Virus record (IMG/VR): IMGVR_UViG_3300020420_000008
Coordinates: 82,610 to 146,609 of that record
Length of the DNA: 64,000 nucleotides
Reading direction: 5' to 3' (one strand)
DNA from: a virus
Positions 1 through 64,000 of the stretch are shown here, piece by piece. A model generated the notes under the pieces. It made no database searches. It was not told where the DNA came from and saw only the letters and a list, made by a program, of their open reading frames with translations. The position numbers and the translations under genes are program-made. The number at the start of each line of letters is the position of its first letter. Positions within the stretch are counted from its first letter, which is position 1.

Positions 1-2
1 GA

Positions 3-500
3 GGTGCTGGAGGTGGTGATGGCGGACGTGCCGCCGGTGGTGGATTTGTTGGTGGTGGTGCAGGTAGTAATTCTGGAGGAGGCTCAGGTAGTACTGGTAG
101 TATTGCACACTCGGCGGCAGGAAGTGCTGAAGGTAGTAATATTGCAGGACGTGGTGGTACAGCTGGTGGAGGAGGAGGCGGCTGGGGCCGAGATCAAAAT
201 AAAGGTAATACAACGAGAACGACAGCAGGCTCCGGTGGCGGAGGTGGAAGAGCATTTCCTGGAACTGGTGGCGGTGGTGGTAGTAATCCTGGCTTTGCAA
301 ATCCTGGAGGTGGTGGAGGAAGTTCTACTGGTGGAGGCGGGGGTGGCTCCACTCATACCGGCGGTGGTGGCGGTGGTTGGGGTTCTTCTGGTGGTGGCGC
401 CGGTGGAGGCGGCGGTGGTGGCGGTGGTAGAGCCGTACATCGAAACGGAAGAAGTATTTCACACAACAACAATAGATTTCATGGATCAATAGCAGGATAA
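3..500 (+). CDS. C-terminal part of a polyglycine-rich adhesin, T-even gp38-like (5' end outside window)
   Basis: Frame starting at nt 3 is open to TAA 498-500 and reads GAGGGDGGRAAGGGFVGGG...GGGGGWG...GGGGRAVHRNGRSISHNNNRFHGSIAG*. Gly runs and the ending resemble gp38. Not in the supplied ORF track. Confidence 0.75.
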   Translation, partial: GAGGGDGGRAAGGGFVGGGAGSNSGGGSGSTGSIAHSAAGSAEGSNIAGRGGTAGGGGGGWGRDQNKGNTTRTTAGSGGGGGRAFPGTGGGGGSNPGFANPGGGGGSSTGGGGGGSTHTGGGGGGWGSSGGGAGGGGGGGGGRAVHRNGRSISHNNNRFHGSIAG

Positions 501-505
501 TTATT

Positions 506-1402
506 ATGTATATGAACGCAGATATGATGAAGAAAACACTTAATTTATGTGATGAAGCTCACAAAGGATATGAAATAGGACTTAAAATATTACAGGATAA
601 AGGATATCTATCTTTATATAATGAACATGGAGAAAGTCATGCAGGTTTGATGACAATCCCTGAGTGGTTGCTTGTATATAGAACATTTGTTAATTCATAT
701 TGGCCCGAAGATAAAGTAAAAGAATTAGAAGATGCATACTCTCAAGAAGATAATGAAAATGATGTAACACCGAGTTTTAAAAATGATACAGCATTATTAA
801 AACAATTGTCAGATGTTTATGTTACTACTACTAAAGATAGAAATCCAGATTTAACAGAAGAAGAAATAAAATCTAAAGATAAACAATGGTGGTTTGACGA
901 GAATCAAGGTCCATATGGTTATTCATTTTGGATGATTGATAAAACAAAACCAGCACCTATTGAAGCCGTAATATATTGGAATAATCATACTGTAACAAAT
1001 GATTGGTATATAACAATAGATGGTTATGAAACACAAGGTACAAAAGAAGTATTAAATAACAAGACTGTAGAAGAAATAAAAGCTAGATTAGATGAATTAG
1101 TTACAGAGAGAGTAGGAGAACCATTAGCTTCTCAAGATGTAGAACCTGTTGACTTTGATGAATATGGTGGAGTAATAATGAATAAAAGTATGAAAGACGC
1201 TGATGATGAAGATACTTTTATGGTTACAGATCATCTAGGCAATTCAGTTGCGGTAGATGGTATGGAGAAAGCTATAGAAACTGCTACAGCATATAGAAAG
1301 GCTAAAGCAGAGTTTCAATTATCTTTTTTCATATGGAGAAAAATAACTGAACCAGGTGGTTATTTTGCTTGGAGAGAAGAGAATATAGCAGATTACTTAT
1401 AG
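506..1402 (+). CDS. hypothetical protein (acidic)
   Basis: 298 aa ORF with AGGA RBS and phage-typical codon use. Confidence 0.7.
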   Translation: MYMNADMMKKTLNLCDEAHKGYEIGLKILQDKGYLSLYNEHGESHAGLMTIPEWLLVYRTFVNSYWPEDKVKELEDAYSQEDNENDVTPSFKNDTALLKQLSDVYVTTTKDRNPDLTEEEIKSKDKQWWFDENQGPYGYSFWMIDKTKPAPIEAVIYWNNHTVTNDWYITIDGYETQGTKEVLNNKTVEEIKARLDELVTERVGEPLASQDVEPVDFDEYGGVIMNKSMKDADDEDTFMVTDHLGNSVAVDGMEKAIETATAYRKAKAEFQLSFFIWRKITEPGGYFAWREENIADYL

Positions 1403-1411
1403 TACTCATAT

Positions 1412-1419
1412 TATAAATA
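1412..1419 (+). promoter_or_regulatory. T4-type late promoter TATAAATA
   Basis: Exact gp55 consensus in an intergenic gap. Confidence 0.85.
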
Positions 1420-1441
1420 GTACATAAACAAAGGTGTTAAG

Positions 1442-1792
1442 ATGGGTGCTAAAGCTAACATAGTCGTGGATCAAGGTACAGATTTCGCAACAACAATCAC
1501 TGTTAGAGACAATAGTGGTGTTGCTGTAAATCTTACAAACTACACCGGACATGGACAAATAAGAAAACATTATACTTCAACTGTTGCACATAATATGCAG
1601 ATAGTATTTGAAAGTCCAAGAGAAAGTGGGCAATTAACAATGAAGCTATCTAGAGGACAGACAGCAAACTTAGCTTCGGGAAGATATGTTTATGATGTAG
1701 AAGTAACAGATAGTGCAAACACACGTTCAAGATTGATAGAAGGCATAGTCACAGTAACACCACAAGTAACACGCAGTAACGAGAGTACATAA
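1442..1792 (+). CDS. small virion structural protein (Ig/BppU-N-like)
   Basis: NIVVDQGTDF...GRYVYDVEVTD...RLIEGIVTVTP pattern typical of marine T4-like virion proteins. Confidence 0.7.
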   Translation: MGAKANIVVDQGTDFATTITVRDNSGVAVNLTNYTGHGQIRKHYTSTVAHNMQIVFESPRESGQLTMKLSRGQTANLASGRYVYDVEVTDSANTRSRLIEGIVTVTPQVTRSNEST

Positions 1793-1794
1793 AA

Positions 1795-4700
1795 ATGGCG
1801 GACTTTGATGTTACGCTAGGTTCAAATAAAGGTAACTTAAATGTAGAGTTCGATAAACCTACGCAAGATTTAACTTTAAAGAATCAGGCGGCTACTAAGA
1901 CAAATATAAGAGACTTCAACGATGTTGATAGCAACACTTTTCAAGGTGCACCGGCGGCGAATGGTGAGTCTATACTTGTCTATAATGCCAATACAAAACT
2001 CTTTCAGTTACGCTCAGGTAATATAAGACTTAGAGAAAATCCAGCACATTATTCAGGATTAAAGTATACAGCCGAAGGTGCTTTTATACCTGACACAAAC
2101 AATGCTTACGATTTAGGTTCTCCAGGAAGAAGATTTAGAACACTATTCTTATCTGGCGAAACAATTAAGTTAGGTAATTTAAATCTTTCTGATTCAGGTG
2201 ATACAATCACTATCACAAAAGATACTATTATCGATGGTGTTATTCAGAATGTTGTTATTGGTACTCTCAGCACACAAACTCTAAACACAGATAATTTTGA
2301 AGCCGCCAATCTAGTAGCGAATAGTACATTTACTGTAGAAACACCAAGAGCCTTTTTTAATCAAGGTATGACTGTAAAGTCGGGTGTCATACAAGCGAGT
2401 AATACACATCTTCATGCAAATAATATATCGATAAGAAATAATCTAACTGTCAACGGTGCTATCATACTCAGAGGTAGCACAATGAATCTTGGTGATGGCG
2501 GTGATGTCATAAATCTTGGTGCTACAGTTAATACTAGTATTTTACCTACAAGTTCTAATTTGCTTGATATTGGTGCGCCTGCACAGAAATACGCAAATGT
2601 ATTTACAACAAGCGTAAAAGGTTTACAAACACCAACAGAAGGTACAGATGGTGCTAATAAAGCATATGTAGACGATAGTATAGGCAATATAAGCACAACG
2701 GCAGATGGCACAACACTAGGTACTGGTTTCAATACACTGAATGATGGCGCATCAGTAGGATTTCAAGCTAGTGATAATTTAATATCCACTCTTGATAATA
2801 TCAATGAGACAGCTTTTAATATTTTTAAAAATACATATGTTCGTGATGTAACTTTTGCTTCAGATAAAACATCAGGTGGTGCTGGCACGACTGTTACTCT
2901 TACATTGACTGTAACAGGAAATGCAACTAGATTTGATATTAATTGGGGCGATGGTTCTACTGATACTGACGTAACTGATACAACACCGAGTCATACATAT
3001 ACATCAAATGCAGGTTCTCCATATACAGTTGTAGTTACTGCTAGAAATCATAATGCTATTTCAGGTTCTAAGGGAAGTTCAGCATCTTTTACAAGAACAA
3101 ATTTCATAACAATATTCTTAGCTGATCCAGTTCCTTCATTTACTATTCATGATGCATCGACAGATGGTAACTTAATAACAACAACATCTACAGGTGTACC
3201 GGTATATTTAAATAATACAACGACTAATATACCAAATACAGCTATTACAGCAACTTTCTCCGTAAATTGGGGAGACGGCACTGCTACTGAAAATGTTACA
3301 GGAAAAACAGAAAATGGTGGACCTCAAGGTGGTAGGTTAGCACACACATATACAAATGCATCAGGTACAGGAAGACATACAGTAACACTAAACGTAGTTA
3401 GTTTTGATGCTGGTGATCCTTCTGTTCTGCCTCTCAGTACAACTTCATTGATAAAAGTATTTGATGCTTCTATAGCATCACCTAATCATCTAGGTACAAA
3501 GACAATATCGCTCAACACTTCTTCTGTTGGTACGAATCCTAAAGTTGCATCAGGTTTTACAACAAACGGTGTTTCAGGAACAAACGCTGGTGATAACGTA
3601 ACTCGCTATACTACATCAGGTGCAATTGCAACTGCCGCCATGGGCTCATTTTTCTTTCAAGCAGATGGTGGTACTCTAAGTGCATTTGTAGATGGTAGTG
3701 CAGACGGACAAAAAGCTATTACTAATGCAAATGATGAAGGAACTTTTACAAGTCTCATCATTGACGATGAGCAAGATTATAACAGCTTTGATGCAGATGG
3801 CAATACTGTAGCAGTAAATAGTAGAATATATGCTCCAGGATTATTCGAAGGTTATAAAGCACGAATATCAAAGAGTAATTTCTCAACAGGCTTACACTCT
3901 CTTCAATTACAATCAACTGCTGGTAATACTAACACATTGAAGTTTATCAGAGATGATGTAACAATAACACCTACAACAAGTGTAGGTTCTGCAACACTTA
4001 CACAGGCGTCAGCTGGTACATTATCTTATATATCAGGTATACCTTACTATACAAATGATGCAACACTCACTCTTGCTGGTGTAACTGTACAAAGTTTTAC
4101 AGGACAAACTTTTCAAGACACAACATCACCTGTAGTAGTAGAAAACTCTACTGACTTAGAAGGCACATCAGGTAATGCAATAGGAACAAATAACTTTACA
4201 TACGCAAATATAGATGGTAGTACAACTATGTTAGAAAGTGGTACACCAAAAGTAAATATAGGAACAGCATCACCTTACGCTCTAGGTAATCTTACAGTAA
4301 ATGTAAATGGTGGCGGTAAACGTGTAGAAAGATTACAAGTAAAAGCAAAGAACTCAAACGGAACTGGTAGTGCTGTAATATTAGCATCGCCTGCAATACA
4401 AGCATATAATGGTAGTAAATCGTTTGATGAGACTGCGATACCTGTATCAGACTCACTAGGTGCTGGCTTTGATAATGATGCCAAACGTATTCATAGTTTG
4501 ACTGGTGGTGCAGTAGCATTTAGTAATTCTACTGATTACTTTGCAGATAACGCTTTTACAGGTGCCCAAACAGTAGCAGGCACAACTGAAGCGATAGTGC
4601 GATACGATACACTAAAGCACTTCACAACTGATTTGTCAAGTGGTTATTTACCAGCTGGACCTAATTTAAATACAGGACGTTCAGGTGCCCAACATTTTGT

Positions 4701-6664: not shown

Positions 6665-9600
6665 ATGGCAAGTGTTAACACAATTATAATAAAAAACTCA
6701 GCCGTAACTGGTAAAACACCAGTTGCCTCTGATTTAGAAGTAGGCGAATTGGCTCTGAATACGGCTGATGGTTTACTTTTTACAAAGCAAGCTGATAGTA
6801 CAATTATCAAGATAGCAGGAGATAATCTATCTTTAACAAATGAAGTTGTAAATGATGGAGCCGCCAACGAAGGTGCTAAAATAAATCTTATCAACGCTCT
6901 AGCATCAGGTAACGTAAACGAAGGATCGTTTACAATCGAAGGTTCTTCCACTGTACAAGTAACTCATGACTCAACAAATAATAAAGTCGTACTAAGTTCA
7001 GGTGGTGGAACAGTTACAGGTATATCCTCAGGAGGCACAACTGTTAATCCAGCATCAGGAGTTATAGACTTTGTTGGTGGGAATGGTATTACTGTAACTG
7101 CTAATGATGGCACTGATGCCTTAACTTTAGCAATAGGTGGTGCTGATAGTAGTTCAAATGCAGTTTCCGGTGTCAAGACATATTCAACACAACAGATATT
7201 CAACGCTGGACTTACAACAGGTAATGGAGCTACTAGTGCAGGATTCATTCACTTTTTAGAAGATAGTACCGATGGCACTAACAAAGTAATATTGCAAGGT
7301 GCATCAAGTGGTAGTGATATAACCTTAACTCTTCCTGTTGTAACAAGTACAACTCTTGTAGGTGAAGCTGGTGCCCAAACTCTTACAGAAAAAACACTTA
7401 CCGCACCAACAATTAACGGCGTAGTTGGAGGTACAACTACTTCACAGACAATTACAACACTTAACACATCAACTATAAATCTTGGTGGGGCGGCAATAAC
7501 ATCAACAGCCGCCGAACTTAACTTACTTGATGGTGTAGCAGGACTTGTACAAGCTGACTTTACAAAACTGGCGGCAGTCGATGCAACGGCAGCCGAACTT
7601 AATATATTAGACGGAGATACTTCTGCTACATCTACCACAGTTGCTGATGCAGACAGAGTAGTATTGAACGACAATGGTACTATGGTACAGGTTGCCGTAA
7701 CAGACTTGGCTGCCTACTTTGACGATGAAATCACAGCAATGCCTAATCTTGTTGCAACTGGTGCGTTAAACTCAGGTACTATTACTTCTGGTTTTGGTAA
7801 CATAAACAACGGCGCTTCAACAATAACTACAACAGGACAAATCAGTGGTGGCGCTCTTGTAGTTGATACTATAACAGTTGATGGTTCAACAGTAACTGCA
7901 TCAGGAGATTTAACACTAGATAGTGGTGGTGATATCGTTTTAGATGCTGACGGCGCAAACGTAACAATAAAAGATGCTGGCGCATCAGTATTAGATATTG
8001 CAAACAGTTCAGGAGACGTAGAACTTACAGTTAGCACAGCCGACAAAAACTTTGCAATCAAAGGAACAGATGGTAGTTCAGGCATAACAGCCTTAGACAT
8101 AGACATGGCACTTGCAGGTAAAGCAACCTTTAATGGTGAAATAGTCACAACAAGCTCTATTACTGGTGGTTCTTTAGTTGCAGATGGTACAACAATAAAC
8201 AACTCAACTATAACTGATACTGGATCCAACTTTAAAATAGACGCTTCCGGTTCAATTAATCTTGATGCCGCCGGTTCTGGAGCCGTGGGTACTATTTCGT
8301 TTGCAGATGCTGGATTAAACTATGGTATAATCTTACCAAGTGCTAATGACGATTTCATGCTTCGTCCAGCACAAACTGATAAAGACATAATACTTCAAGG
8401 TAATGATGACGGTTCTGTAATAGATATGTTAAAGCTAGATGCTAGTGATGCAGGTAATGCAACATTTAGTGGCTCAATAACATCAACAGCAGGAGATGTA
8501 ACCATAACAGCTGGTGATTTAAATATCACTAAGAGTGCATCTGAACAAGCAGAAATAAATCTTTTTGAAGCTACTGGCGCAGGCACTAACAAAATCACAG
8601 TAAAACCTGCTACAGCAACTTTAGGTGGTGATACTGTTCTTACTTTACCGGCAGAAACTGGCTTAGTAATTACAACCGCATCTTCAAACATAGTTAACGC
8701 AAACATAAGTGGATCGGCGGCAATAGCAGATAGTAAGCTTGCTAAAATTACAACAACTGATAAAGTTGGTGCCCAATCTATCGATATAACTTCAGCAACA
8801 GACGGCTCTTCTGGTGGCGGCGCATTTGCTCTAGCTGATGATGACTTTTTCTTGGTACATGACACTGGTGCTGGAGCTACTAAGAAAGTATTGATGTCAC
8901 AACTAGAAACTTATGTTGGTATCGGTGCAGGTGGTTTAGCAATCACAGCAATTGACATAGATGGTGGTACAGATATTGGTGCTGATCTTGTAGATGGTGA
9001 CTTGTTCATTGTTGACGATGGTGCAAACGGAACAAATAGAAAATCTGCAATATCTAGAATTGGTGATTATATCTTTAATAAGATATCAACCGCCACAGCC
9101 ACGGACATATCTATAACCGATGCTGGTGTTGCTACTATTAATCCTAATTCTGTTGCAATGGGTACTGACACAACTGGTAACTATGTTGCTACTATAGCTG
9201 TTGGTTCAAACTTACAAACAACTGGCGCCTCTACAGGCGAAACTATAGCACACACAATCAACTTAGCTACAAATCCAGACATTGCAGGAACATTAGCTGT
9301 TACTGGTGATGTCACAATGGACGCATCTGCTAGTGTTGCTGGTAATCTAACTGTTACAGGAAACTTAGAAGTAAACGGTACAACAACTACTGTTAATACT
9401 GATAACTTATCAGTAGAAGATTCACTAATCGAACTTGCGAGAGGTAACACCTCTGATACACTAGACGTAGGGTTCTTTGGAAATTTCGGCGCCGGCTCAG
9501 ATGTTGATCAAGCAGGTTTAGTAAGAGATGCAGATCATGGTTCAACAGTAAACGGTGTAACACTACCTAAACCTTTCGTACTATTTACCGATCATGATAC

Positions 9601-25908: not shown

Positions 25909-27548
25909 TGTCTACTCTAACATATCTTGGTAATCCTAATCTAAAAGCAAAAGGCGTATCTGTAAACTTTGATAAAGAAAATATCAAAGAATACATAAAA
26001 TGTTCTAAAAATCCTGTATATTTTGCAAAAAACTACGTAAAGATTATTAACGTAGATAAAGGACTTGTTCCTTTCAAGTTATATAAATTTCAAAAAGAAA
26101 TGGTTGAAACTTTCAATAAAAATCGTTTCAGTATATGTAAACTACCTAGACAGTCAGGTAAATCAACTACAGTCACAGCTTATATATTATGGTTGATACT
26201 ATTCAAAGATAGTCAAAATATAGCCATTCTTGCAAACAAAGGTTCTCTTGCAAGAGACTTATTAGGTAAGATACAGTTTGCATATGAATACTTACCAAAA
26301 TGGTTACAGCAAGGTATTGTTGTATGGAATAAAGGTAACATTGAGTTAGAGAATAGCTCTAAGGTTGTTGCCGCCGCCACTTCATCGTCAGCTATTCGTG
26401 GTGGTTCGTATAATCTCATATTCTTAGACGAGTTTGCCTTTGTTGGTAATAATCTAGCGGAAGAGTTCTTCAGTTCTGTTTATCCTACAATATCTTCTGG
26501 ACAAACTTCTAAAGTAATTATAGTATCTACACCAAATGGTATGAATCATTTCTATAAAATGTGGACTGATGCTGAAGAAAAGAACAGCCAGTACGTACCT
26601 ATAGAAGTACACTGGAGCCAAGTTCCAGGAAGAAACGAGAAATGGAAGAAAGAAACAGTTGCAAATACTTCTGAAGAACAGTTTCGTCAAGAGTTTGAGT
26701 GTGAGTTTTTAGGTTCAGCTGGTACACTTATACACCCTACTAAACTTAGAGTATTAGCACATGTGACACCTATAAAGAAATGGCAAGATGTTGAGATATA
26801 TGAAGAACCAAAACAAGATGCAATATACACAATGTCTGTTGATGTGTCAAGAGGTGTTGGTTTAGATTATTCTGCTTTTATTGTTGTAGATATATCACAG
26901 ATGCCTTATAAACTTGTAGCAAAATATAGAAGTAAGGATATATCACCACTATTATACCCTACTATTATTTACAATGTAGCAAAGTATTATAACGAAGCTT
27001 ACGTATTAGTAGAAATAAATGATATAGGACAACAAGTCGCTGATATATTACATCAAGATTTAGAGTATGAAAATATGTTAGCAACGTCTGTGAAAGGTAG
27101 GGCAGGACAACAAATAAGTGGTGGATTTTCCGGTTCATCATCTATGGGTATCAGAACTACAAAACAAGTAAAAAGAATAGGGTGTTCTAATCTAAAAGAT
27201 TTGATTGAGCAAGATAAATTTATTGTACAAGACTATGAAACGATTGTAGAATTATCAACATTTATAAGTAGGGGTGGTAGTTATGAATCTGAAGAAGGTT
27301 CTCATGATGATTTAGTTATGTGTTGCGTTTTATTTTCTTGGTTAGCTAAACAAACATATTTTAGAGATATAACAAATACCGACATACGACAGAAAATTTA
27401 TGATGAAAAGCTGAGAATGTTAGATGATGAAGCACTACCTTTTGCTATCATCGATGATGGACAACCAGAAGAGGGTGTTGTTCACTCACAAGAAGATATA
27501 GAAGAATTTATCAGAAAAGGAAACAAAGATAGCTTTAGTGTATTCTAA
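25908..27548 (+). CDS. gp17: terminase large subunit gp17
   Basis: PRQSGKST Walker A, LIFLDEFAF Walker B, DVSRG and HDDLVM nuclease motifs. Confidence 0.96.
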   Translation: MSTLTYLGNPNLKAKGVSVNFDKENIKEYIKCSKNPVYFAKNYVKIINVDKGLVPFKLYKFQKEMVETFNKNRFSICKLPRQSGKSTTVTAYILWLILFKDSQNIAILANKGSLARDLLGKIQFAYEYLPKWLQQGIVVWNKGNIELENSSKVVAAATSSSAIRGGSYNLIFLDEFAFVGNNLAEEFFSSVYPTISSGQTSKVIIVSTPNGMNHFYKMWTDAEEKNSQYVPIEVHWSQVPGRNEKWKKETVANTSEEQFRQEFECEFLGSAGTLIHPTKLRVLAHVTPIKKWQDVEIYEEPKQDAIYTMSVDVSRGVGLDYSAFIVVDISQMPYKLVAKYRSKDISPLLYPTIIYNVAKYYNEAYVLVEINDIGQQVADILHQDLEYENMLATSVKGRAGQQISGGFSGSSSMGIRTTKQVKRIGCSNLKDLIEQDKFIVQDYETIVELSTFISRGGSYESEEGSHDDLVMCCVLFSWLAKQTYFRDITNTDIRQKIYDEKLRMLDDEALPFAIIDDGQPEEGVVHSQEDIEEFIRKGNKDSFSVF

Positions 27549-36829: not shown

Positions 36830-37080
36830 ATTGGTTAGTAGTAGTGATATTCTCAGGCGTTGTCGGAGGATATCAAGATTTATATATTTTACAGAAACCT
36901 TCTTTCGTTTCAAGAGAAGAATGTAGAACAAAATTAAGCACAGAAGAACTCAAAGTTGCACTCACAAAGCAACTAACAAAAGAGTATCCAGCTTATAAGC
37001 CTATCGAAAGAATAGTTTGTGCAACAGAGAAACAAATACAACAAGTATTAAATGATAGTTATGGTAAAAGAGATACATGA
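36826..37080 (+). CDS. hypothetical protein with hydrophobic N-terminus and two Cys
   Basis: ATGA overlaps on both sides. Confidence 0.65.
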   Translation: MNWLVVVIFSGVVGGYQDLYILQKPSFVSREECRTKLSTEELKVALTKQLTKEYPAYKPIERIVCATEKQIQQVLNDSYGKRDT

Positions 37081-37508: not shown

Positions 37509-37571
37509 AGAAGAAGTAGTAACTAAACTGAAATTGAGAATAGCTAAATTTAAAAAAGATCATGCTGAAAT

Positions 37572-39989: not shown

Positions 39990-41047
39990 GAATAGCTATC
40001 ATTAATGACACTCACTGGGGTGCTAGAAATGATTCACAACAATTCTTAGATTATTTCAAAAAGTTTATAGATAATATATTTCTACCTTACATAGATGAAA
40101 ACAAAATAGATACTGTCATACATCTTGGTGATATCGTAGATAGACGTAAGTACATAAACTATGTCACACTTAGACATCTAAAAGATAATCTGATACAGCC
40201 GTTGTTAGATAGAAAAGTGAACCTAAATGTTATCATTGGTAATCATGATGTACCCTACAAGAATACTAATGAAATAAACTCTATGGCAGAATTGTTCGAT
40301 AAGCATAGTGTAAAATATTATTCAGAACCTGAAGTCGTAACATTTGATGGTACTGATATACTACTTGTGCCTTGGATAAACACATCTAATTATGCGAACT
40401 CTATGGATATGATAAAGAATACAAAAGCACAGATTTGTATGGGACATCTAGAGATAGCAGGTTGTACTCTCATGAGAGGTATAACTTCCGATCATGGTAT
40501 TAGTATAGATACTTTCAAACATTTTGACACAGTACTTTCAGGACACTTTCATACAAAATCTACAAGTAATAATGTGCATTATCTTGGTACACAATATGAA
40601 CTGACTTGGACAGATTACCAAGATCCTAAAGGCTTTCATGTGTTTGACACAAACACTAGAGAGATAGAGATGGTACGAAATCCATATCGTATGTTTCATA
40701 AAGTATTCTATGATGATGTAAAGAATACTTCAGAAGAGATACTACACAAAGATTACTCCATGTTTGGTAACACATATGTCAAAGTGATTACACAAGAAAA
40801 AGAAAATCCATATACATTTGATTTGTTCATGGACAAACTCTATCAAGAAAATCCTATCGCAGTACAGATTGTAGATGATCACTTGAACTTACATTTAGAA
40901 GGTGATGACGATTTAATCAATCAAACTCAAGATACTGTGACTATATTATCTAACTACATTGAGAACATGGAGACTAATGTACCAAAGAAAAGACTCGACA
41001 ACTTAATGAGAACCTTGTATAATGAAGCTTTATATATGGAAGTGTAA
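39986..41047 (+). CDS. gp47: recombination endonuclease subunit gp47 (SbcD/Mre11-like)
   Basis: DTHWG, LGDIVD, GNHD, GHLE and SGHFH phosphoesterase motifs. Confidence 0.95.
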   Translation: MRIAIINDTHWGARNDSQQFLDYFKKFIDNIFLPYIDENKIDTVIHLGDIVDRRKYINYVTLRHLKDNLIQPLLDRKVNLNVIIGNHDVPYKNTNEINSMAELFDKHSVKYYSEPEVVTFDGTDILLVPWINTSNYANSMDMIKNTKAQICMGHLEIAGCTLMRGITSDHGISIDTFKHFDTVLSGHFHTKSTSNNVHYLGTQYELTWTDYQDPKGFHVFDTNTREIEMVRNPYRMFHKVFYDDVKNTSEEILHKDYSMFGNTYVKVITQEKENPYTFDLFMDKLYQENPIAVQIVDDHLNLHLEGDDDLINQTQDTVTILSNYIENMETNVPKKRLDNLMRTLYNEALYMEV

Positions 41048-42759
41048 TGATATACTTTGAAAATATTCGATGGAAGAACTTTCTATCAACAGGTAATCAA
41101 TGGACAAACATACCTTTAAACACACACTCAAATACAATTATAGTAGGTGAGAATGGTGCTGGTAAGTCAACGATACTTGATGCACTATGTTTTGTACTGT
41201 TTAACAAACCTTTTCGTAAAATAAGTAAATCGCAAATGTTAAACTCAATCAACATGGGCGGACTTGAAGTAGAAGTAAAATTTAGAATTGGTAAGATGAA
41301 CTATACTATACGTAGAGGTATGAAACCAAATATATTTGAAATACATCAAGACAGCACTTTACTCAATCAACCAGGTTCAGCTAGAGATTATCAGAAGCAA
41401 CTAGAAGAAACTATACTTAAACTAAACTTTAAATCTTTCACACAGATAGTTGTTCTTGGTGCATCTACATTTATACCTTTCATGCAACTGTCTGTGTCGC
41501 ATAGACGAGAGGTGATAGAAGATTTATTAGATATTAGTATATTCTCTAATATGGGTAAACTATTGAAAGATAGAGTTGCAGAGAACAAAGAATCTATACG
41601 TGACTCAGACTACCAGATAGATTTACTTAAAACAAAAATAGATACACAACAATCCTACATTCGAAAACTAAAAGAGCAGAATGATGATACAATAGCTACA
41701 TTTCAAAACTTGATAGATGGTGCCCAAGATGAAATCAATGACTTAACACAACTATCAAATGGTATAGTTGAGAAGATAGAGTTTCTATCAGAAGATGTTG
41801 CACCTCTCAAAGTCAATGAAAATAAGAAAGCTAAACTTATCGACATTCACAATAGAATGCAAAGAAAGATAAAGAATGCGGAGAAGAGAATAGCTTTCTT
41901 CAATGATAATGCGGAGTGTCCTACTTGTTCTCAAGATATCAGTGATGATATTCGTGATAGTAAAATATCAGAAACAAATGCTACCATAGTAGAAGTAAAA
42001 GCTGGTGAAGGCGAGTTGCAAAAACAATTATCTGAACTCGATGGTAAAATAAATGATATGTTATCAGCACAACAAAGATTGGTAGGATTACAAACAGAGA
42101 TTGCTGAAAACAATTCTAGTATAAAATCTCTGAATAAATCTATACAGAAAAACCAGAAAGAAATAGAGAAGATAAAAGATACTGGTGTCGATAGTGCTGA
42201 AACATATGAGAAACTTAAACTTTATGAAGACGATAAGAGACTCAACGAACAGAGAAAAGAAGAGTTAGTTAATGATAGAGAACTATTCAGTGTAGCAGTA
42301 AATATGCTCAAAGATGATGGTATCAAAAAGAAAATCATCAAACAGTATGTGCCAGTTATGAACAAACTTATCAACAAATATTTGGCTGCCTTAGATTTCT
42401 TTGTACTGTTCGAACTAGATGAACAGTTCAATGAAGTTATTAAGAGTAGACATAGAGATGAGTTTTCGTATGCATCATTCTCGGAAGGTGAGAAAATGAG
42501 AATAGACTTAGCATTACTATTCACATGGCGTTCTATAGCAAAACTCAAAAACTCTATCAATACAAATCTACTAATACTTGATGAAGTATTCGATGCATCT
42601 CTAGATAATAATGGTTGTGATGAATTTCTAAAACTATTGAACCAGCTAGATAACCAGACAAATGTATTTGTAATATCTCATAAAGGTGATATACTATCTG
42701 AGAAGTTTAAGAATCAGATACGATTTGAGAAATATAAAAACTTTAGTAGGGTGGCATAA
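41047..42759 (+). CDS. gp46: recombination ATPase gp46 (SbcC/Rad50-like)
   Basis: GENGAGKST, CPTC hook, FSEGEK, LILDEVFD. Confidence 0.96.
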   Translation: MIYFENIRWKNFLSTGNQWTNIPLNTHSNTIIVGENGAGKSTILDALCFVLFNKPFRKISKSQMLNSINMGGLEVEVKFRIGKMNYTIRRGMKPNIFEIHQDSTLLNQPGSARDYQKQLEETILKLNFKSFTQIVVLGASTFIPFMQLSVSHRREVIEDLLDISIFSNMGKLLKDRVAENKESIRDSDYQIDLLKTKIDTQQSYIRKLKEQNDDTIATFQNLIDGAQDEINDLTQLSNGIVEKIEFLSEDVAPLKVNENKKAKLIDIHNRMQRKIKNAEKRIAFFNDNAECPTCSQDISDDIRDSKISETNATIVEVKAGEGELQKQLSELDGKINDMLSAQQRLVGLQTEIAENNSSIKSLNKSIQKNQKEIEKIKDTGVDSAETYEKLKLYEDDKRLNEQRKEELVNDRELFSVAVNMLKDDGIKKKIIKQYVPVMNKLINKYLAALDFFVLFELDEQFNEVIKSRHRDEFSYASFSEGEKMRIDLALLFTWRSIAKLKNSINTNLLILDEVFDASLDNNGCDEFLKLLNQLDNQTNVFVISHKGDILSEKFKNQIRFEKYKNFSRVA

Positions 42760-43289
42760 TGGGCAAGCGAAGTGATTTTGAAAGAAAAGAGAGAGATTTC
42801 TATCCTACACCAGAAGAGGCAGTTTTACCTTTATTACCTCACATAGAGAACGCTTTTAAATTTATAGAACCTTGTGCTGGTGATGGTTCATTGACAAGAC
42901 ATCTAATGAAATATAAAGATCCTTGGTGTGTACTACAATCTGATATAGAACCGAAACATGGTGTACGTGAGGGCGATGCATTTGATATAGAAGCAGACTT
43001 GTATTCTCATGTGGATTATTGTATTACTAACCCACCTTGGGATAGAAAGATACTACACCCACTAATAGAAAAATTAACAAGCATAGCACCAACTTGGCTA
43101 CTATTTGATGCTGATTGGATACACACGAAACAAAGCAAACCTTATTTAAAACATTTAAAAAAAGTAGTGAGTGTTGGTAGAGTTAAATGGATACCAGGAA
43201 CAAAGTCAGTGGGTAAAGATAATTGTTGCTGGTACTTTTTCACACCTGCATATGAATATGGTATAATAGAATTTTATGGAAGAGAATAA
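42759..43289 (+). CDS. small SAM-dependent amino DNA methyltransferase (N6-A/N4-C type)
   Basis: DFYPTP (motif X), IEPCAGDG (motif I), ITNPPW (motif IV); only 176 aa. Confidence 0.85.
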   Translation: MGKRSDFERKERDFYPTPEEAVLPLLPHIENAFKFIEPCAGDGSLTRHLMKYKDPWCVLQSDIEPKHGVREGDAFDIEADLYSHVDYCITNPPWDRKILHPLIEKLTSIAPTWLLFDADWIHTKQSKPYLKHLKKVVSVGRVKWIPGTKSVGKDNCCWYFFTPAYEYGIIEFYGRE

Positions 43290-43290
43290 A

Positions 43291-43497
43291 ATGTGGAATG
43301 TGCCAAATATATTAAAATTTAAAAAACCTGAAGTAGAATCTAAAGAAATAGAAATAAAAGAAGTAGATACTAGAGTAAACATACACACACTCTACAAACA
43401 TAGATGGGTTTGGTATCATTTGATATTATGTATACAAGTGATCTTGACAAACATACTTTTAGTTGGTATACTAGTAACATTAGCAATAAAATTATGA
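43291..43497 (+). CDS. small membrane protein
   Basis: C-terminal hydrophobic segment; start at 43276 or 43291. Confidence 0.6.
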   Translation: MWNVPNILKFKKPEVESKEIEIKEVDTRVNIHTLYKHRWVWYHLILCIQVILTNILLVGILVTLAIKL

Positions 43498-43503
43498 GAG
43501 ACA

Positions 43504-44811
43504 ATGACTAATAGAGATTTATACAGACTCAACGAACAAGAACATAAAGATAAAGATATATCAAGGATATACAAAACTTGGACAGAGAGTGAAGATTTAG
43601 ATTCTATACCTGATATAGACTCTAAGCAATTATCAGAAGATTTAACAAGCGACTTAACAGAAGTATGTTCTATGAACGTATCAGAATATACTCTATTTAA
43701 AAAATGGCTTGAGATACAAGGTAAATATCCTACAGAGAAAAGAAACACATTATTTGATGGTGTGCAACGAGTTTTACTAGATGATAGTCAGTCTAGAACT
43801 ATATCTAGAATTAGAAGTCAAATCTGGAAACCAGAGAGTGTTGACGATTATATGAAACTAGAACCTGAAATGGTTTTATGTAATAAGAATCCTGATGAAA
43901 TTGCTCAATATAATACTCTAAGATCCTTTATCAGCACTGCCGAAAATAATAATAATGTTGGTAGAAATCTATACTACTATATTATAGATAAAGTTACAAA
44001 AAAATATCTAGGCACAATCTGTATGTCTTCTGATTATCTAGATTTAACACCAAGAGATAATTATATTGGTTGGACTAGAGAAAAGAAAACCGAAGATAAG
44101 ATGATAAACTATACTACAGTTGGCTCTACAATTGTACCAACACAACCTCTAGGTTTTAATTATGTTGGTGGTAAGTTGCTTGCTCTATTATGTTTATCTG
44201 ATACAGTACAGAAAGATTGGAAAGAACAGTATGGTGATACATTAGTATCTGTAACTACAACATCACTATATGGAAAAGCAAAAGTTGGTGGTATGTCACA
44301 ATATGATAATCTCAAACATTGGAAGAAGATGGGATATTCACAAGGTTCTGTAGCGTATAAACCAAAGAAAGAAACAACGAAACGATTACGTGACTGGTTA
44401 AAAAAGTATTATTCTGAAAAATACTTTGAATGGTATGTTGCACTCAAACCTAGTGGACAACCATACAAACGTGATCACAAGAATCGTTCACACCAATTCG
44501 CATTCTCAAAGTTAGGTATAGATAAGTCTATAGTAAGATCCGAACATCAAAGAGGTATCTACTATTCACCACTATACACAAACACTTGTGAGTTTTTGCG
44601 AGGCGAGATTTCAGAGGACAAACTTGTCAAATCTTTTGATACAAGTACAGAGTATCTAGTCAATCTCTGGAAGGACAAGTATGCACGAAAGCGAATAACC
44701 TCTCTCATAAACAGTGATCGTGTGTCCTCTGAAACTTTATTCTATGACGATTTAGCTTATCTTGATTGGGAAGATTGTAAAGAAAAGTACTTGACTCAAG
44801 TAGGTAGATAA
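43504..44811 (+). CDS. DUF4338 / DruA-like protein
   Basis: VGRNLYY.I.D..T.KYLG...L..RD.YIGW...P.GFNYVGGKLLALL...TTTSLYG...SQY motif series recalled for DUF4338. Confidence 0.7.
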   Translation: MTNRDLYRLNEQEHKDKDISRIYKTWTESEDLDSIPDIDSKQLSEDLTSDLTEVCSMNVSEYTLFKKWLEIQGKYPTEKRNTLFDGVQRVLLDDSQSRTISRIRSQIWKPESVDDYMKLEPEMVLCNKNPDEIAQYNTLRSFISTAENNNNVGRNLYYYIIDKVTKKYLGTICMSSDYLDLTPRDNYIGWTREKKTEDKMINYTTVGSTIVPTQPLGFNYVGGKLLALLCLSDTVQKDWKEQYGDTLVSVTTTSLYGKAKVGGMSQYDNLKHWKKMGYSQGSVAYKPKKETTKRLRDWLKKYYSEKYFEWYVALKPSGQPYKRDHKNRSHQFAFSKLGIDKSIVRSEHQRGIYYSPLYTNTCEFLRGEISEDKLVKSFDTSTEYLVNLWKDKYARKRITSLINSDRVSSETLFYDDLAYLDWEDCKEKYLTQVGR

Positions 44812-44820
44812 TGCTATTAT
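44791..44820 (+). promoter_or_regulatory. sigma70-type promoter TTGACT-N18-TATTAT
   Basis: -35 at 44791-44796; TGc-TATTAT at 44815-44820. Confidence 0.6.
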
Positions 44821-44852
44821 AGAATCATCAAATTAAAGAGAGGTATTATATT

Positions 44853-46256
44853 ATGGACGTATGCGAAAGGCTAGAAAGCCCTCTCAGGGAAGTTATGCTT
44901 TTACCTGATTTTATAGAGAAGGCTGGATTATTAACAACACAAACAATGGTAGCAGATTACTCTCACCAAGCTAATAGAAAAACTAGGTGGAGTGAAGAGA
45001 TGATGAGTATGTTTTTTCGTTCATCTGTTCTTAATCAACTTCCAGCACCTATAGTTATTGTAGATTTAGAGAAGTGTTTAGAACATGCTAACGAGACAAA
45101 TAATCAATCGGATATTGTGTACTTTACATTATGGTTTATTCAAAATGGTGCAAAATATTTAATATTAGATGGTAACAATAGAATTATGGTTACAAAAAAA
45201 ATATTAAATGATGAAGTAAAGTTACCAACAGATATTCCTTTACATACAGGACCTGATGGTAAACTAGTACAAACATCAAATATAAAGTTAGGTGCTACTT
45301 TTTCTACATTAGATAAAGCTTTAAGAGATTCTTTTGATACTAGTGAAGTAGAAGTTCATGTATACACAAAATTAACAGAAGTAAAAATGGGCTTAGTTTT
45401 TCAAATCTATAATTTAGGTTCACCATTAATTGATCCTGAATTTAGAAATTCTTTCGGCGGACTCATTGTTAAAGCTTATAGAGATTTAGCAGATAAATGG
45501 GAAAATTTGTTTGAAAAATTAGATATGACATCTACAAATATTAATAGAAGATCGATTGAGCAGTGGATGGCGTATGCTTTCAATATCTGGTTTCATGACA
45601 TTAAAAAACCTTGTACTAAAAAGGTTTTAGATAATCTAAGTTTACCAAATCAAAAATCTACTGAACTAGAAATTATTGGTTTTGAAAAAGCTATGAATAC
45701 TTTTTTGAAAATTGTTGATACTAGTAAAATTGTTGGTTTACAAAAAAGTAATGCAGTTTTAGATGCTTGGGCAATATATGTTCAGCAAACTAGAACTGAA
45801 AATAAAGTATTTAAAAATGACGAAACTATTTTAAAGTTTACAACAGATGTTGCTGACAGTATCTATCATCTATTAGAATTAAAAGGTGATGATGGTAAAG
45901 CTAAAACATATGAAACAGGTAAAGATGTTTTTAAAACTTTCAAAACCTTACTAGGTAACAAAACTGCTAGTAATAATAATGAAAGAAATAAGTTAATCTT
46001 AGAACAGTTAGTTGACTTAGATAAATATTTTGTACCTAAAACTAAAAGAGTTGCATCAGACTTAGATGCATCAATTGTCGCCAATAGTCAAAATTGGAAA
46101 ACTAAAGATGGTACTCCTATCCCATATGATCAACTTAAAAAATTTCACAAGGGACATATAGTACCTTTTTCAAAGAGCAAAGATTCTTCTAAAGAAAACC
46201 TTATAATACAAACACCTGAAGAAAATTTAAAGCTAGGTGCAAAAGAAGCAATTTAA
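44853..46256 (+). CDS. DUF262/ParB-like + C-terminal HNH nuclease (GmrSD-like)
   Basis: N-terminal RW...P.I...YLILDGNNR...F...N.G.PL...EFRN; C-terminal GHIVPFSK...ENL...EEN. Confidence 0.72.
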   Translation: MDVCERLESPLREVMLLPDFIEKAGLLTTQTMVADYSHQANRKTRWSEEMMSMFFRSSVLNQLPAPIVIVDLEKCLEHANETNNQSDIVYFTLWFIQNGAKYLILDGNNRIMVTKKILNDEVKLPTDIPLHTGPDGKLVQTSNIKLGATFSTLDKALRDSFDTSEVEVHVYTKLTEVKMGLVFQIYNLGSPLIDPEFRNSFGGLIVKAYRDLADKWENLFEKLDMTSTNINRRSIEQWMAYAFNIWFHDIKKPCTKKVLDNLSLPNQKSTELEIIGFEKAMNTFLKIVDTSKIVGLQKSNAVLDAWAIYVQQTRTENKVFKNDETILKFTTDVADSIYHLLELKGDDGKAKTYETGKDVFKTFKTLLGNKTASNNNERNKLILEQLVDLDKYFVPKTKRVASDLDASIVANSQNWKTKDGTPIPYDQLKKFHKGHIVPFSKSKDSSKENLIIQTPEENLKLGAKEAI

Positions 46257-61600: not shown

Positions 61601-62515
61601 ATGTTACAGAGACAAAGTGGTGTTCATTCTCTTTACAAAAATGGAGAATTTCAAGGATCTTCAACTGTAGCCGCAAGTTTCACTTCAACAGTTTTAAGAT
61701 TAGGATCTAGATATAATAATAATACAACTTGGAGTTTTGGTGGTTATATGCACGATTTTAGAGTGAGTAAAGGTTTATCTCGTTATCCCTATATTTCATC
61801 AAAAGTAACACTTACTCAAACTAATTCTGGTATGATAAAACCTGACGGCACGACACCTACCGCTACAGCATCAAATACTAAACTTCTTGCATGTCATCAT
61901 TCTACAAAAACTACAGAAGGTTCTGCTACTGGACATACTATTACTTCAGCAGGCTCTACTGCTTCTGGTACAATTGTTCCTAAGTATGGAATGAACTCAG
62001 TTCATTTTCCCAATGGTGATAGTGATTACTTTCAAATTGCGGCTTCTGCTGAACATCAGATTTACGGTGGTGATTATACAGTAGAAGCGTGGTTATATCC
62101 AACTGCATTTAATACCAATTATAATTATTTTGTCACTAAAGGTGGTAATAGTACAAGAGAGTGGGGATTTAGTATTAGTGCATCAAATATAATAGCTTAC
62201 TGGAGTACAAATGGTAGTAGTAGTGGTGATTCAACTGTTACTAAAACAGTAACTAATAAATTAAATGAGTGGATGCACGTAGCTTTTGTAAAAAATGGTA
62301 CTGATATTGCAATATTTAAAAATGGTAGTTTCATAGGTAACGGAACTTTTAATTCAATCTACAGCGGTAATGGTGTAACTACAATAGGAAGACTATGGCA
62401 ATATACTGGTATTTCACATCAATACAGCGGATATATTTCTAATCTTAGAATTGTTAAAGGACAGGCATTATATGCTAAAAACTTTACACCTTCAACTGAA
62501 GCACTTATAAGTTAG
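58622..62515 (+). CDS. adhesin/tail protein with five LamG/ConA-like domains (paralog of 55221)
   Basis: Shared N-terminus (LSADSGDL/LGADSGNL, EPEGTP, TDGVNTG); five units; ACTAAATA promoter variant at 58595. Confidence 0.82.
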   Translation: MVTKLSYTANSITLGTGTSKVVLGADSGNLIVKDSQANTSILEPGLGVQGASAVATYANPAALPFNPISSAGSLAYTTSTGALYMSNGSGWYKITLVNTAPSISLSSTTASPTATNLTLDFTYTVTEPEGTPTNVSIANSGIATTGNVAVTHTTSNNHVRLVFDGTTKYSGDASVTLTVTDGVNTGTGTITISTAYYSGTNTSETVTLLKATGTGNNDNWDDKSPSNHTILDYGAIEQVAFSPYRDNGYSIYFDGNGDYLTIPDSSDFDFTTGNGDFTIESWIYKTNASESAWYTQRDSSTAELMIFLDHNISGYSAGSVSIEYDSAQYTFNAGIQQNKWQHIALVRTGTTVKWFTDGIERDSRSEPASLANYAHEIYIGSWRTLSRYYEGYISDLRVVKGTAVYTGNFTTPTSRLTNVTNTKLLIGGNSLSDNKPATTATQKSLYFGTNSNNYLLNYGDESALEFGTNSWTIEAWIYSTGTMSNAGIFSRGANGSFWHSLHMTSASTIKYVLSNGAGQEWNFTSSGSQIPTNTWTHVALVRRFGTDIKLYVNGTAIKTDTSSASTTLGDSTGDFKIGFERFQGSGGGFNGYISNFRFVNGTAVYTGNFTTPSSPLTNITNTVILHHGLTNEVSGGVGNPTNTSVTVNNLSPFNTIHTITPNGDVFMAAYSPYDRENAYTTATGGGSARLRPQGGNDYFGATSSSDFAMGTGDFTLEVWVYPENLSVHQMILDTITPGVSGSQAGRFVAYLNPNKLAYYRPGTGTTTSSGSQTVKLFSWNHLAWVRNSGTLKMYLNGEETHSVAETYNFSLTNLSLGRDAASGGAGQARSYWSDLRLVKGTAVYTSEFTPPTAPLGTISGTVLHLPFTDFRIFDKSQSYLPPQSVSTDRLGINGSVVASSTQQHFSENTVYFDGSSDYIDITNPISGLEDHTHEAWVYPTGGDSTYGGFWSSITTNGATGINVSRDLAGGPSNSSAAIATFSGGVPADEWSHVMLQRQSGVHSLYKNGEFQGSSTVAASFTSTVLRLGSRYNNNTTWSFGGYMHDFRVSKGLSRYPYISSKVTLTQTNSGMIKPDGTTPTATASNTKLLACHHSTKTTEGSATGHTITSAGSTASGTIVPKYGMNSVHFPNGDSDYFQIAASAEHQIYGGDYTVEAWLYPTAFNTNYNYFVTKGGNSTREWGFSISASNIIAYWSTNGSSSGDSTVTKTVTNKLNEWMHVAFVKNGTDIAIFKNGSFIGNGTFNSIYSGNGVTTIGRLWQYTGISHQYSGYISNLRIVKGQALYAKNFTPSTEALIS
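59825..60457 (+). repeat. 33-nt perfect direct repeat, 600 nt apart
   Basis: ACTGCGGTTTATACAGGAAACTTTACAACACCA at 59825-59857 and 60425-60457. Confidence 0.9.
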
Positions 62516-62778: not shown

Positions 62779-62858
62779 ACAAAGAAGTATTTCTTACACA
62801 TTTCTCTATGCTAGTTATTGGTATAGTTACTGGTTACGCAATATATAATTATCTGTAA
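62775..62858 (+). CDS. 27-aa single-TM peptide (MNKEVFLTHFSMLVIGIVTGYAIYNYL)
   Basis: ATGA overlap with the upstream stop; hydrophobic. Confidence 0.4.
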   Translation: MNKEVFLTHFSMLVIGIVTGYAIYNYL

Positions 62859-62859
62859 A

Positions 62860-62890
62860 GTTTCATAAAACCTTCATACTTACATTTCAT
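62860..62890 (+). promoter_or_regulatory. putative PhoB box
   Basis: GTTTCAT-AAAA-CCTTCAT (11-nt period) plus a third TTTCAT, upstream of pstS. Confidence 0.65.
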
Positions 62891-62971
62891 AAGAAAAACT
62901 AAATAAAAAAATAGAGAACCATGGTAGTGATTCTCTATTAAGTTCAACAGATTTTAAAGAAAGGAAATTCT

Positions 62972-63922
62972 ATGAATAAATCAGTTGTAATACTATTTAG
63001 TATAATTATTTCTCTATTTTCAGCAAACTTTGCATTTTCTAGAGAATACGTAACGTCAGTAGGTTCTTCTACTGTATATCCATTTACAACTTTAGCCGCC
63101 GAAAAATTCGCAAAATTAGGCAATGCATCACCCGTTGTAGAGTCAACAGGAACTGGTGGAGGAATGAAATTATTTTGTGCCGGTATTGGACTTAACACAC
63201 CAGATTTGACTGGTGCATCAAGAGCCATCAAAAGTTCCGAAGTAGAACTTTGTGAAAAAAATGGTGTAACACCATTAGAAAATCTTATAGGTTATGATGG
63301 TATTACATTCTCAAACTCAAAGAAAGCTAAACAACTCTCTGTAACAAAAGAAGAAATATATAAAGCGGTTTCTCTTAAAATCGAAGGTAAAGATAATCCT
63401 TACATTTATTGGAGTGATATAAATCCAGAACTACCTAAAATGAAAATAGATGTCTTAGTACCACCACCATCATCAGGTACAAGAGATGCTTTCGTAGAAC
63501 TTGTACTACATTCTGTATGTAAGAAAATATACAAAATGCCTAAGAAAGGTGTAGATGGATATAAGCAGAATTGTTCTGCATTAAGAGAAGATGGACTAGT
63601 TACTGAAACAGGTGAAAATGATAATCTTGTTGTAGAGAAACTAACCTCAGATATAAATCGATTTGGTGTATTCGGATTTTCTTTCTTAGATCAAAATAAA
63701 GACAAAGTTCAAGGTTCTATCGTAGATGGTGTTGCTCCTACATTTGATACTATTGCAGATGGTTCTTACAAAGTATCACGTCCTTTATTCTTCTATGCAA
63801 AGAAAGAACACCTTGGTATTATTCCAGGACTTCAAGAATTTGTTGATTTCTATAATTCAGATGTAATCATAGGACAAGATGGTGTTGCCTCATCTAGAGG
63901 ACTTATACCTCTTGCAAAGTAA
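62972..63922 (+). CDS. pstS: phosphate ABC transporter substrate-binding protein PstS
   Basis: Signal peptide; VGSSTVYPF, ESTGTGGGMKLFCAG, ASRAIK, SGTRDAF, Y.VSRPLFFY. Confidence 0.92.
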   Translation: MNKSVVILFSIIISLFSANFAFSREYVTSVGSSTVYPFTTLAAEKFAKLGNASPVVESTGTGGGMKLFCAGIGLNTPDLTGASRAIKSSEVELCEKNGVTPLENLIGYDGITFSNSKKAKQLSVTKEEIYKAVSLKIEGKDNPYIYWSDINPELPKMKIDVLVPPPSSGTRDAFVELVLHSVCKKIYKMPKKGVDGYKQNCSALREDGLVTETGENDNLVVEKLTSDINRFGVFGFSFLDQNKDKVQGSIVDGVAPTFDTIADGSYKVSRPLFFYAKKEHLGIIPGLQEFVDFYNSDVIIGQDGVASSRGLIPLAK

Positions 63923-63925
63923 AAC

Positions 63926-63954
63926 TTGACTCATCTCATAGCATCTGTTATTAT
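63926..63954 (+). promoter_or_regulatory. sigma70-type promoter TTGACT-N17-TATTAT within a 13-bp inverted repeat
   Basis: -35 at 63926-63931, -10 at 63949-63954; IR arms 63933-63945 and 63955-63967. Confidence 0.7.
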
Positions 63955-63960
63955 GATGCT

Positions 63961-64000
63961 ATGAGATTCTACACAAACGCTTTTGTTCGTGGTAACTACG
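63961..64000 (+). CDS. gp43: N-terminus of DNA polymerase gp43 (truncated by window end)
   Basis: MRFYTNAFVRGNY matches the MRFYTN start of marine T4-like gp43; expected synteny after regA/hsp20. Confidence 0.7.
   Translation, partial: MRFYTNAFVRGNY

Follow-up and report, generated by a model that had tools for sequence, protein, structure and literature searches.

Flank-dependent avoidance of short DNA words in a marine T4-like phage and a possible protective mark on GG/CC steps

The window and the spelling of GCNGC

The window analyzed here is a stretch of 64,000 nucleotides (bases 82610-146609) of the 146,609-bp linear IMG/VR record IMGVR_UViG_3300020420_000008 (hereinafter G000), which belongs to a marine T4-like myovirus with a G+C content of 35.6% and has a CheckV completeness estimate of 76%. 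The subject is a set of short words, foremost GCNGC, that are tolerated in this genome only next to particular bases. Simple longest-open-reading-frame calls cover 95% of the record, and 168 of the 177 called genes are located on the plus strand. Among named phages, Pelagibacter phage HTVC008M is the nearest relative; the terminase large subunits (TerL) of the two are about 60% identical. The record encodes ThyX, so that thymidine synthesis is ordinary. Positions 47777-48227 of the record, which lie outside the window, hold a predicted tmRNA gene of the permuted type (tag ANDDFAPVDYALAA) that overlaps tRNA-Gly(ACC); the tag sequence suggests an alphaproteobacterial host.

Word counts were compared with synonymous-codon shuffles in which the protein sequences and global codon use are kept, and are given below as observed/expected, where the expected values draw on a codon pool already distorted by the purge. 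In the flank test, each depleted 4-6-mer was asked whether a single 5' flank restores its frequency under the same null model.

The earlier note, made from the letters of the window, had claimed that GCNGC is tolerated only when each of its GC steps lies within GGC or GCC, and this rule proved exact. Among the 72 GCNGC sites on the plus strand of the window, 35 are written GCCGCC, 27 GGCGGC and 8 GGCWGCC, with two exceptions; across the record, 137 of the 140 sites conform, and the third exception is located inside the predicted tmRNA gene, where RNA structure constrains the sequence. In the synonymous-shuffled controls that had been proposed as a check, a shuffled window contains 76.5 sites of which 5.2 conform (6.8%, with a maximum of 16% in 300 shuffles), compared with 97% in the actual sequence. 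The total number of sites in the record is not lowered (140 observed, 153 expected) because 130 of the 140 are in-frame Ala-Ala pairs, which are unable to avoid GCNGC. By context, WGCWGCW (0/73) and GGCWGCW (0/22) are missing from the record, WGCGGC is rare (3/24.5), and GCCGCC and GGCGGC jointly reach 126/7.8. The central N itself counts as a flank: GGCGGCD, whose inner G lies directly before the second GC, is allowed, whereas GGCWGCD is forbidden (0/22), and the outer flank on one strand is equivalent to the inner base on the other.

The rule is written largely into alanine codons. As the earlier note had it, isolated Ala codons are mostly GCA (48%) and GCT (40%), with GCC and GCG at 6% each, and Ala-Ala is placed in the rare ones: the 130 pairs comprise 77 GCC-GCC, 24 GCG-GCA, 15 GCG-GCT, 3 GCG-GCG, 10 GCW-GCC and a single GCC-GCA. 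A G precedes every GCW-GCC pair and 41 of the 42 GCG-GCN pairs. G-ending codons account for 40% of those directly upstream of Ala-Ala, compared with 7.8% generally, and include the rare ACG, TCG, GGG and CTG, each of which makes up 2-5% of the usage for its own amino acid; the base two positions upstream of the site is unconstrained. The positions given earlier for the eight GGCWGCC sites and for the Ala triplet of the terminase are correct (Table 1), and a restriction-type target is still the best reading of GCNGC.

Purged words, flank rescue and relatives

About 25-26 short words or word classes are absent or nearly absent from both strands of the record relative to the codon-preserving controls, including CGCG (0/39), GGCC (7/83), GCWGC (11/118) and CGWCG (2/43). 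Between 12 and at least 20 hexamer palindromes have zero copies (window and record), among them GAATTC, AGATCT, CTTAAG, AACGTT, CTGCAG, CACGTG, GCTAGC, GAGCTC, CTCGAG, GCATGC, GTCGAC and CGATCG, and the type IIS-like words GGATG, CCCGC, CACGAG and GAGCT are depleted as well. Despite the gene strand bias, GACC and GGTC are found at similar numbers on the plus strand (24 and 29). Depletion on both strands identifies double-stranded DNA, and not RNA or codon use, as the target, as in restriction-site avoidance, and the phage is under strong selection against the targets of many sequence-specific nucleases. Only nine copies of forbidden words survive in the 146.6 kb, across about 26 word classes; two of the nine fall within or next to the tmRNA and tRNA genes, a location that makes sense if the demands of RNA structure outweigh the purge.

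For at least five cores besides GCNGC, a 5' G or a 3' C rescues the word. GACC with a 5' G is at expectation (52/58), whereas the other three flanks give 1/311. The same split is seen for GCAGC (11/16 with G, 0/102 otherwise) and GCTGC (11/14 and 0/104; pooled GCWGC, 22/29 and 0/207), for GCGCA (21/21 and 0/27) and GCGCT (21/20 and 0/30; pooled GCGCW, 42/41 and 0/57), for GGCCA (6/7.7 and 0/50) and, less sharply, for GAGCTA (11/16 and 6/38). Within the window, HGCGCD accounts for none of the 28 GCGC, HGACC/GGTCD for none of the 24 GACC/GGTC and HGGCCD for none of the 4 GGCC, and CGCG has no copies. In a matrix of all 16 combinations of flank and first base, G before G stands alone in restoring 11 of 32 cores, and each of the other 15 pairs restores 0 or 1. 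Cores with end bases that are unable to sit in GG/CC (CGCG, CTTAAG, AACGTT, AGATCT, CTGCAG and CACGTG) have zero survivors. The G-flanked copies occur at the expected frequency, which implies that they are harmless; in particular, GGCGC (66/58) and GGACC are avoidable words and are present at expectation.

The effect reaches protein composition. Ala-Ala pairs occur at 0.57 of expectation, compared with 1.07-1.18 in three relatives without the GCNGC restriction, and Trp-Pro and Gly-Pro are at 0.25 and 0.47, respectively, in the G000 proteome. All three are dipeptides that cannot be encoded without a purged word. Trp-Pro occurs four times in the called genes and is always spelled TGG-CCC, which avoids TGGCCW.

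The relatives compared are mostly fragments; HTVC008M (L001, L163, L164) and G001 (167 kb) are complete, and G004 (L174-L180; 125.9 kb) is 70% complete. The contigs L002-L004 (TerL 95-98% identical) follow every one of the rules, as do L082 and L083. In the sister clade (L005-L008 and L084; TerL 84% identical), GACC is found only as GGWCC, GCGC only with a flanking G or C, and GCWGC nearly always as GGCWGCC (with one GGCTGCG in L006), and WGCGGC and GGCC are used freely; the terminase of this clade spells its Ala triplet GCG GCC GCW, which holds three forms forbidden in the G000 clade. The free use of WGCGGC and GGCC marks the GCSGC and GGCC constraints of the G000 clade as recent, although with the same type of rescue.

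The same rescue is seen in more distant phages at other cores. In HTVC008M, GATC is depleted (83/335) in a graded manner, with 0/207 for copies without a G/C flank, 55/116 for one flank and 28/12 for both (GGATCC). Rescue by GG extends there from GATC to GANTC and GATGC: GGACTC is at 15/14 and HGACTC at 0/71, GGATTC at 22/26 against 6/161 for other flanks, and GGATGC at 14/20 against 9/186. In G004, GACTC is at 14/15 when G-flanked and 0/88 otherwise, and at one G004 locus (L070, 21.5 kb) all six surviving GATC sites are flanked by G or C. The flank matrices again single out G before G, with 9 of 28 cores in HTVC008M and 9 of 43 in G004, compared with 0-3 for the other 15 pairs. Other relatives purge GATC in every context (L010, L012, L129, L134, L155 and L196-198, with 0 G-flanked copies against 13-26 expected), and L052-54 purge GCGC likewise (0 copies). 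G-flanked copies are thus within reach of GATC- and GCGC-type selection, and it is the lineage that determines whether they are rescued. This trait is patchy, given that a clade with 77% TerL identity lacks rescue of GATC and HTVC008M, at 60%, has it, and it is not a property of the cores themselves.

Some of these genomes show further avoidance. HTVC008M is a very heavy site-avoider, with TCGA at 2/207, CCGA at 16/168, CASTG at 10/124 and the non-palindromic TCAAGA at 0/110; its purged GANTC is the CcrM word. G004 is without RGCY, a CviJI-type word (AGCT 0/313, AGCC/GGCT 0/288, RGCY 0/600), and without TTTAAA (0/83). The complete relative G001 (L165-L173) has no depleted word.

The gp46-cobT island

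The interval between gp46 and a cobT-like gene is a hypervariable island with modification- or defense-type cargo that differs between close relatives (Table 1). The nature of this cargo is no more than suggestive of DNA modification. The first island gene in the window encodes a 176-residue protein with a predicted Rossmann methylase fold (model pLDDT 88.6) and a (D/N/S)PP(Y/F/W) motif in the form NPPW; the best PDB matches of the model are METTL5, KsgA/Dim1, M.BseCI and M.TaqI. Its family numbers 6,590 or more metagenomic proteins, each about 175 residues long, has no Pfam model, and shows about 50 invariant positions, including NPPW, EPC-x-G-x-G and DADW. The next gene encodes a DruA-like protein to which a region of HTVC008M gp106 is 51% identical; the DUF4338/DruA family has been described as GNAT-like (PMC10853773).

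Several other genes of the record lie outside the window. Positions 26377-34832 encode, along with ThyX, a class II-like ribonucleotide reductase, a SegE-type GIY-YIG endonuclease, a plastocyanin-like copper protein and a capsule-synthesis-like protein. An insertion in the baseplate cluster (59862-61955) encodes a zeta-toxin-like P-loop kinase (PF06414, E 2e-5), which is shared with HTVC008M gp129 and G004, followed by a 409-residue protein without a Pfam match. In phage KVP40, whose record alone has an annotated QueC-like gene, GATC is not strongly avoided over the 50 kb examined (141/214).

Table 1. Features discussed in the text (window coordinates unless another sequence is named)
Feature	Position	Strand	Remark
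GCNGC only as GCCGCC, GGCGGC or GGCWGCC	1..64000	.	70 of 72 sites; word counts and shuffles
Terminase large subunit Ala-Ala-Ala, GCC GCC GCC	26370..26378	+	different spelling at the same residues in the sister clade
GGCAGCC	7588..7594	+	one of eight GCWGC in the window, all GGCWGCC
Other seven GGCWGCC (starts)	7708, 23278, 27822, 29283, 34155, 34596, 42384	+
Exception AGCCGCA (GCC-GCA Ala-Ala)	61669..61675	+	GCCGC from 61670; 1297-residue reading frame at 58622-62515
Exception TGCGGCT	62038..62044	+	GCGGC from 62039; same 1297-residue reading frame
GGTGCACC (Gly-Ala-Pro)	1945..1952	+	form of all five GTGCAC sites in the genome
GGTGCACC, second window copy	23435-23442	+	GTGCAC site
TGGCCC (Trp-Pro, rare codon CCC)	701..706	+	GGCC survives only as GGGCC/GGCCC
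Remaining GGCC sites (GGGCC/GGCCC)	19140, 57173, 185-191	+	word listing
gp46-cobT island	42759-46256		three genes in the next rows
176-residue gamma-class amino-methyltransferase-like protein	42759..43289	+	first island gene; motifs FYPTP, EPCAGDG, NPPW
DruA/DUF4338-family protein	43504..44811	+	PF14236, E 1.5e-22
467-residue protein with C-terminal HNH domain	44853..46256	+	nearest Atlas clusters carry GmrSD_N (DUF262) and HNH
Island of sister-clade L084	L084 8237-11605		methylase-like gene, TAGT glycosyltransferase (E 5e-44), ParB-like protein
Island of HTVC008M	HTVC008M 84548-87258		JmjC-like and DruA-like genes
Island of G004	G004 35220-42502		N6_N4 DNA methylase (SPPY motif), JmjC-like and 2OG-oxygenase genes

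A putative GG/CC mark, its alternatives and known systems

The reading that we favor, at about even odds and drawn from sequence comparison, is one in which site avoidance is combined with a phage-lineage-specific, putative protective mark on GG/CC steps. The fuller form of this reading is held more tentatively: an enzyme of some pelagimyophage-like T4 phages, including HTVC008M, might write a new mark on GG/CC whatever the next base, shielding adjacent sites, and the genome and the proteome might have been rewritten around it. A post-replicative mark of this kind would block cutting, and could be carried by the second G, by the C paired with it or by the base that follows. One mark would suffice against GCGC-, GACC- and GATC-type cutters, and a mark in each half-site would be needed against GCNGC-, GCWGC- and GTGCAC-type cutters. 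Ala-Ala, which is bound to contain GCNGC, would then have as safe spellings only GCC-GCC, GCG-GCD after a G and GCW-GCC after a G, as is observed.

The strongest argument for the mark is that the inner N behaves like an outer flank. Such behavior would follow naturally if the writer recognized GG(C) on either strand and the cutter required one half-site to be free of the mark, and it fits poorly with the own specificity of a symmetric nuclease. The graded effect on GATC in HTVC008M fits a model with zero, one or two marks, and the specificity of rescue for G before G provides indirect support. Also in favor are the lack of survivors among cores with ends outside GG/CC, the modification-type cargo of the island in four lineages and the precedent of phage CAjan. 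The earlier note had proposed such a mark for GCNGC; the idea gains from the finding of the same G-before-G rescue at other cores and in HTVC008M, and from the relatives without rescue that purge all contexts, and loses from the words that GG fails to protect.

Several observations weigh against a GG/CC mark. GGCC always holds both GG and CC and is nevertheless purged, even as GGGCCT (0/6.5), and GGGATG (0/20), GGAATTC (0/14) and, in HTVC008M, GGAGTC (0/10) are not rescued. The depletion of Ala-Ala, Gly-Pro and Trp-Pro implies that the supposedly safe forms are still costly. Of more than 100 SAR11 genomes, a single one is reported to carry a restriction-modification system (PMC7029224), which keeps alive the alternative of phage-borne nucleases that intrinsically reject a flanking G.

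Of the writer genes suggested in the earlier note, DpdA, C5- and N4-methylase and TET genes did not turn up in G000 either. TGT/DpdA (PF01702), C5-methylase (PF00145) and thymidylate-synthase-like genes are absent from G000, HTVC008M, G001, G003 and G004, Tet_JBP (PF12851) is absent from G000, HTVC008M, G001 and G004, and N6_N4 and Dam-type families are absent from G000, the sole record searched for them, although the G004 island holds an N6_N4 methylase; TAGT (PF20691) is absent from G000 and was found only in L084. Of the two island candidates for the determinant of rescue, the methylase-like gene was rejected and the DruA-like gene found no support. The 176-residue methylase-like gene is missing from HTVC008M and G004, and its 6,590 homologues are mostly on non-rescue contigs, many of which avoid GGWCC, with about 75 contigs showing no rescue. 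The DruA-like gene is present in L196-198, which purge GATC in all contexts, whereas G004 rescues without DruA in its 125.9 kb (70% complete) and the L084 island lacks it. Finally, 11 proteins are shared by G000, HTVC008M and G004 to the exclusion of G001 and G003, some of these genomes being incomplete; they include PhoH, a GH108 lysin, PAAR, DUF3310, the zeta-toxin-like kinase and a weak Pyr_excise-like protein of 184 residues, with no evident writer among the 11.

Of the explanations that dispense with a writer, very-short-patch-type repair bias can be dismissed on logical grounds, given that the purge is equally strong for each of the three non-G flanks, and coding necessity alone accounts for GCNGC, GGNCC and TGGCC at Ala-Ala, Gly-Pro and Trp-Pro but fails on the choice of flank and on the avoidable GGCGC and GGACC.

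A less easily dismissed, although in our view unlikely, alternative is that there is no modification at all, and that a single family of nucleases with varied cores, encoded by the host or by phages for the breakdown of host DNA, has a shared structural feature that excludes a G:C pair immediately flanking the site. Specificities that exclude one base (D or H) exist for a few enzymes, such as Nt.CviPII (CCD) and Bsp1286I (GDGCHC). G-flanked copies at the expected frequency would follow directly; the purge is absolute (as for HGACC in G000 and RGCY in G004), as if the nuclease were met at every infection; and the intermediate count for GATC with one flank in HTVC008M is compatible with a dimer that has one disabled half. 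The rarity of restriction-modification in SAR11 (PMC7029224) favors phage-borne enzymes. However, seven or more unrelated cores, spread over three lineages, would have to share one flank exclusion, and the replacement of the outer flank by the inner N on the other strand is unlike a symmetric enzyme. Moreover, the newly acquired avoidance of GCSGC, which is not seen in the sister clade, shows the same rescue once again, and the differential gene-content comparison yielded no candidate nuclease family common to the rescue lineages.

It is very unlikely that no common mechanism is involved and that the flanks reflect the least bad choice among overlapping forbidden words (among them WGCGCW, HaeI-type WGGCCW, MscI, StuI, CGCG, TseI and TauI) together with coding necessity. 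For several cores, avoidance of CGCG and GGCC would indeed be enough to eliminate the copies with a C or G flank, WGCGCW is in itself an acceptable palindromic specificity, and the uniform spelling of Trp-Pro and the preponderance of unavoidable Ala-Ala among the GCNGC sites are in line with such an overlap. This explanation nevertheless requires non-palindromic degenerate words, such as HGACC and GCCGCW, and leaves unexplained both the exclusivity of G before G in three genomes and the avoidable GGCGC and GGACC.

A protective mark written by the host, through a methyltransferase conserved in the host clade and acting on words that contain GG/CC, appears highly improbable. It would explain why a phage writer was not found even in the complete genome of HTVC008M, and the tmRNA tag suggests a SAR11-like host, as for HTVC008M. 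Rescue is, however, patchy among close relatives, the mark of one host would be useless on first entry from another unless nearly all hosts shared it, and few genes of this type are reported for the streamlined genomes of SAR11 (PMC7029224).

Least probable of all is the reverse logic, under which most G (or C) is modified except in GG/CC and type IV or BisI-like nucleases cut the modified sites: BisI-family enzymes do cut GCNGC only when it carries several modified cytosines (PMC4926085, PMC11347163) and the phage itself has a GmrSD-like gene, but no bulk writer (C5-methylase, thymidylate-synthase-like hydroxymethylase or DpdA) was found in G000, about 15 classical hexamer palindromes that show no G/C end effect are missing too, as ordinary type II pressure would produce, and the variant put forward in the earlier note, with HGCD modified and a BisI-like cutter, fails because rescue also occurs at cores without a GC step (GACC, and GATC and GANTC in HTVC008M).

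A GG/CC mark, if real, would establish a new class of phage DNA modification, one whose context is the shortest known. Its carriers would include some of the ocean's most abundant viruses, and it would be directly testable in the cultured pair of HTVC008M and HTCC1062. Even without a mechanism, DNA-level defense pressure is seen here to rewrite codon pairs, neighboring codons and dipeptide content. It is a puzzle that site avoidance among the heaviest seen occurs in phages whose host clade is reported to have no restriction systems.

Site avoidance and context-specific modification of phage DNA (for example, in phage CAjan; PMC7544227) are each known already; our searches of the literature yielded no description of avoidance that depends on the doubling of an end base, is specific for GG/CC and goes deep enough to reshape dipeptide content. 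The pattern resembles site avoidance in lytic double-stranded DNA phages in the strand-symmetric loss of 4-6-bp palindromes and type IIS-like words by synonymous recoding, and differs in being flank-dependent, with copies carrying a 5' G or a 3' C untouched, and in reaching protein composition. Fnu4HI (GCNGC), TseI (GCWGC) and the BisI family recognize the same core word as the one restricted here, but the total of GCNGC is not reduced, being forced by Ala-Ala; for a BisI-type target, G000 has no C5-methylase and the rule extends to GACC, GAGCT, GATC and GANTC.

Among modification systems, cytosine hypermodification by methylase, TET and TAGT enzymes is similar in producing a context-limited post-replicative mark, and a TAGT gene is present in the island of the sister L084; no C5-methylase or Tet_JBP was found in the genomes searched, however, and G000 has no TAGT. 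Mom of phage Mu is a single enzyme of the GNAT fold that makes a context-limited mark blocking many restriction enzymes, and DruA is found in both G000 and HTVC008M; Mom targets adenine, however, and the presence of DruA, known here by sequence, does not track rescue in the sample. Further parallels are phage CAjan, with context-specific dPreQ0 at GA and GGC (PMC7544227), and phage iggy, with modification at GA (PMC10484667), in which partial, motif-dependent modification of guanine protects some sites only, GGC being one of the two CAjan motifs. Unlike these phages, G000 and the complete HTVC008M lack a DpdA/TGT homologue, and rescue requires GG followed by any base, whereas GA alone is unprotective, as HGACC and HGATC are purged.

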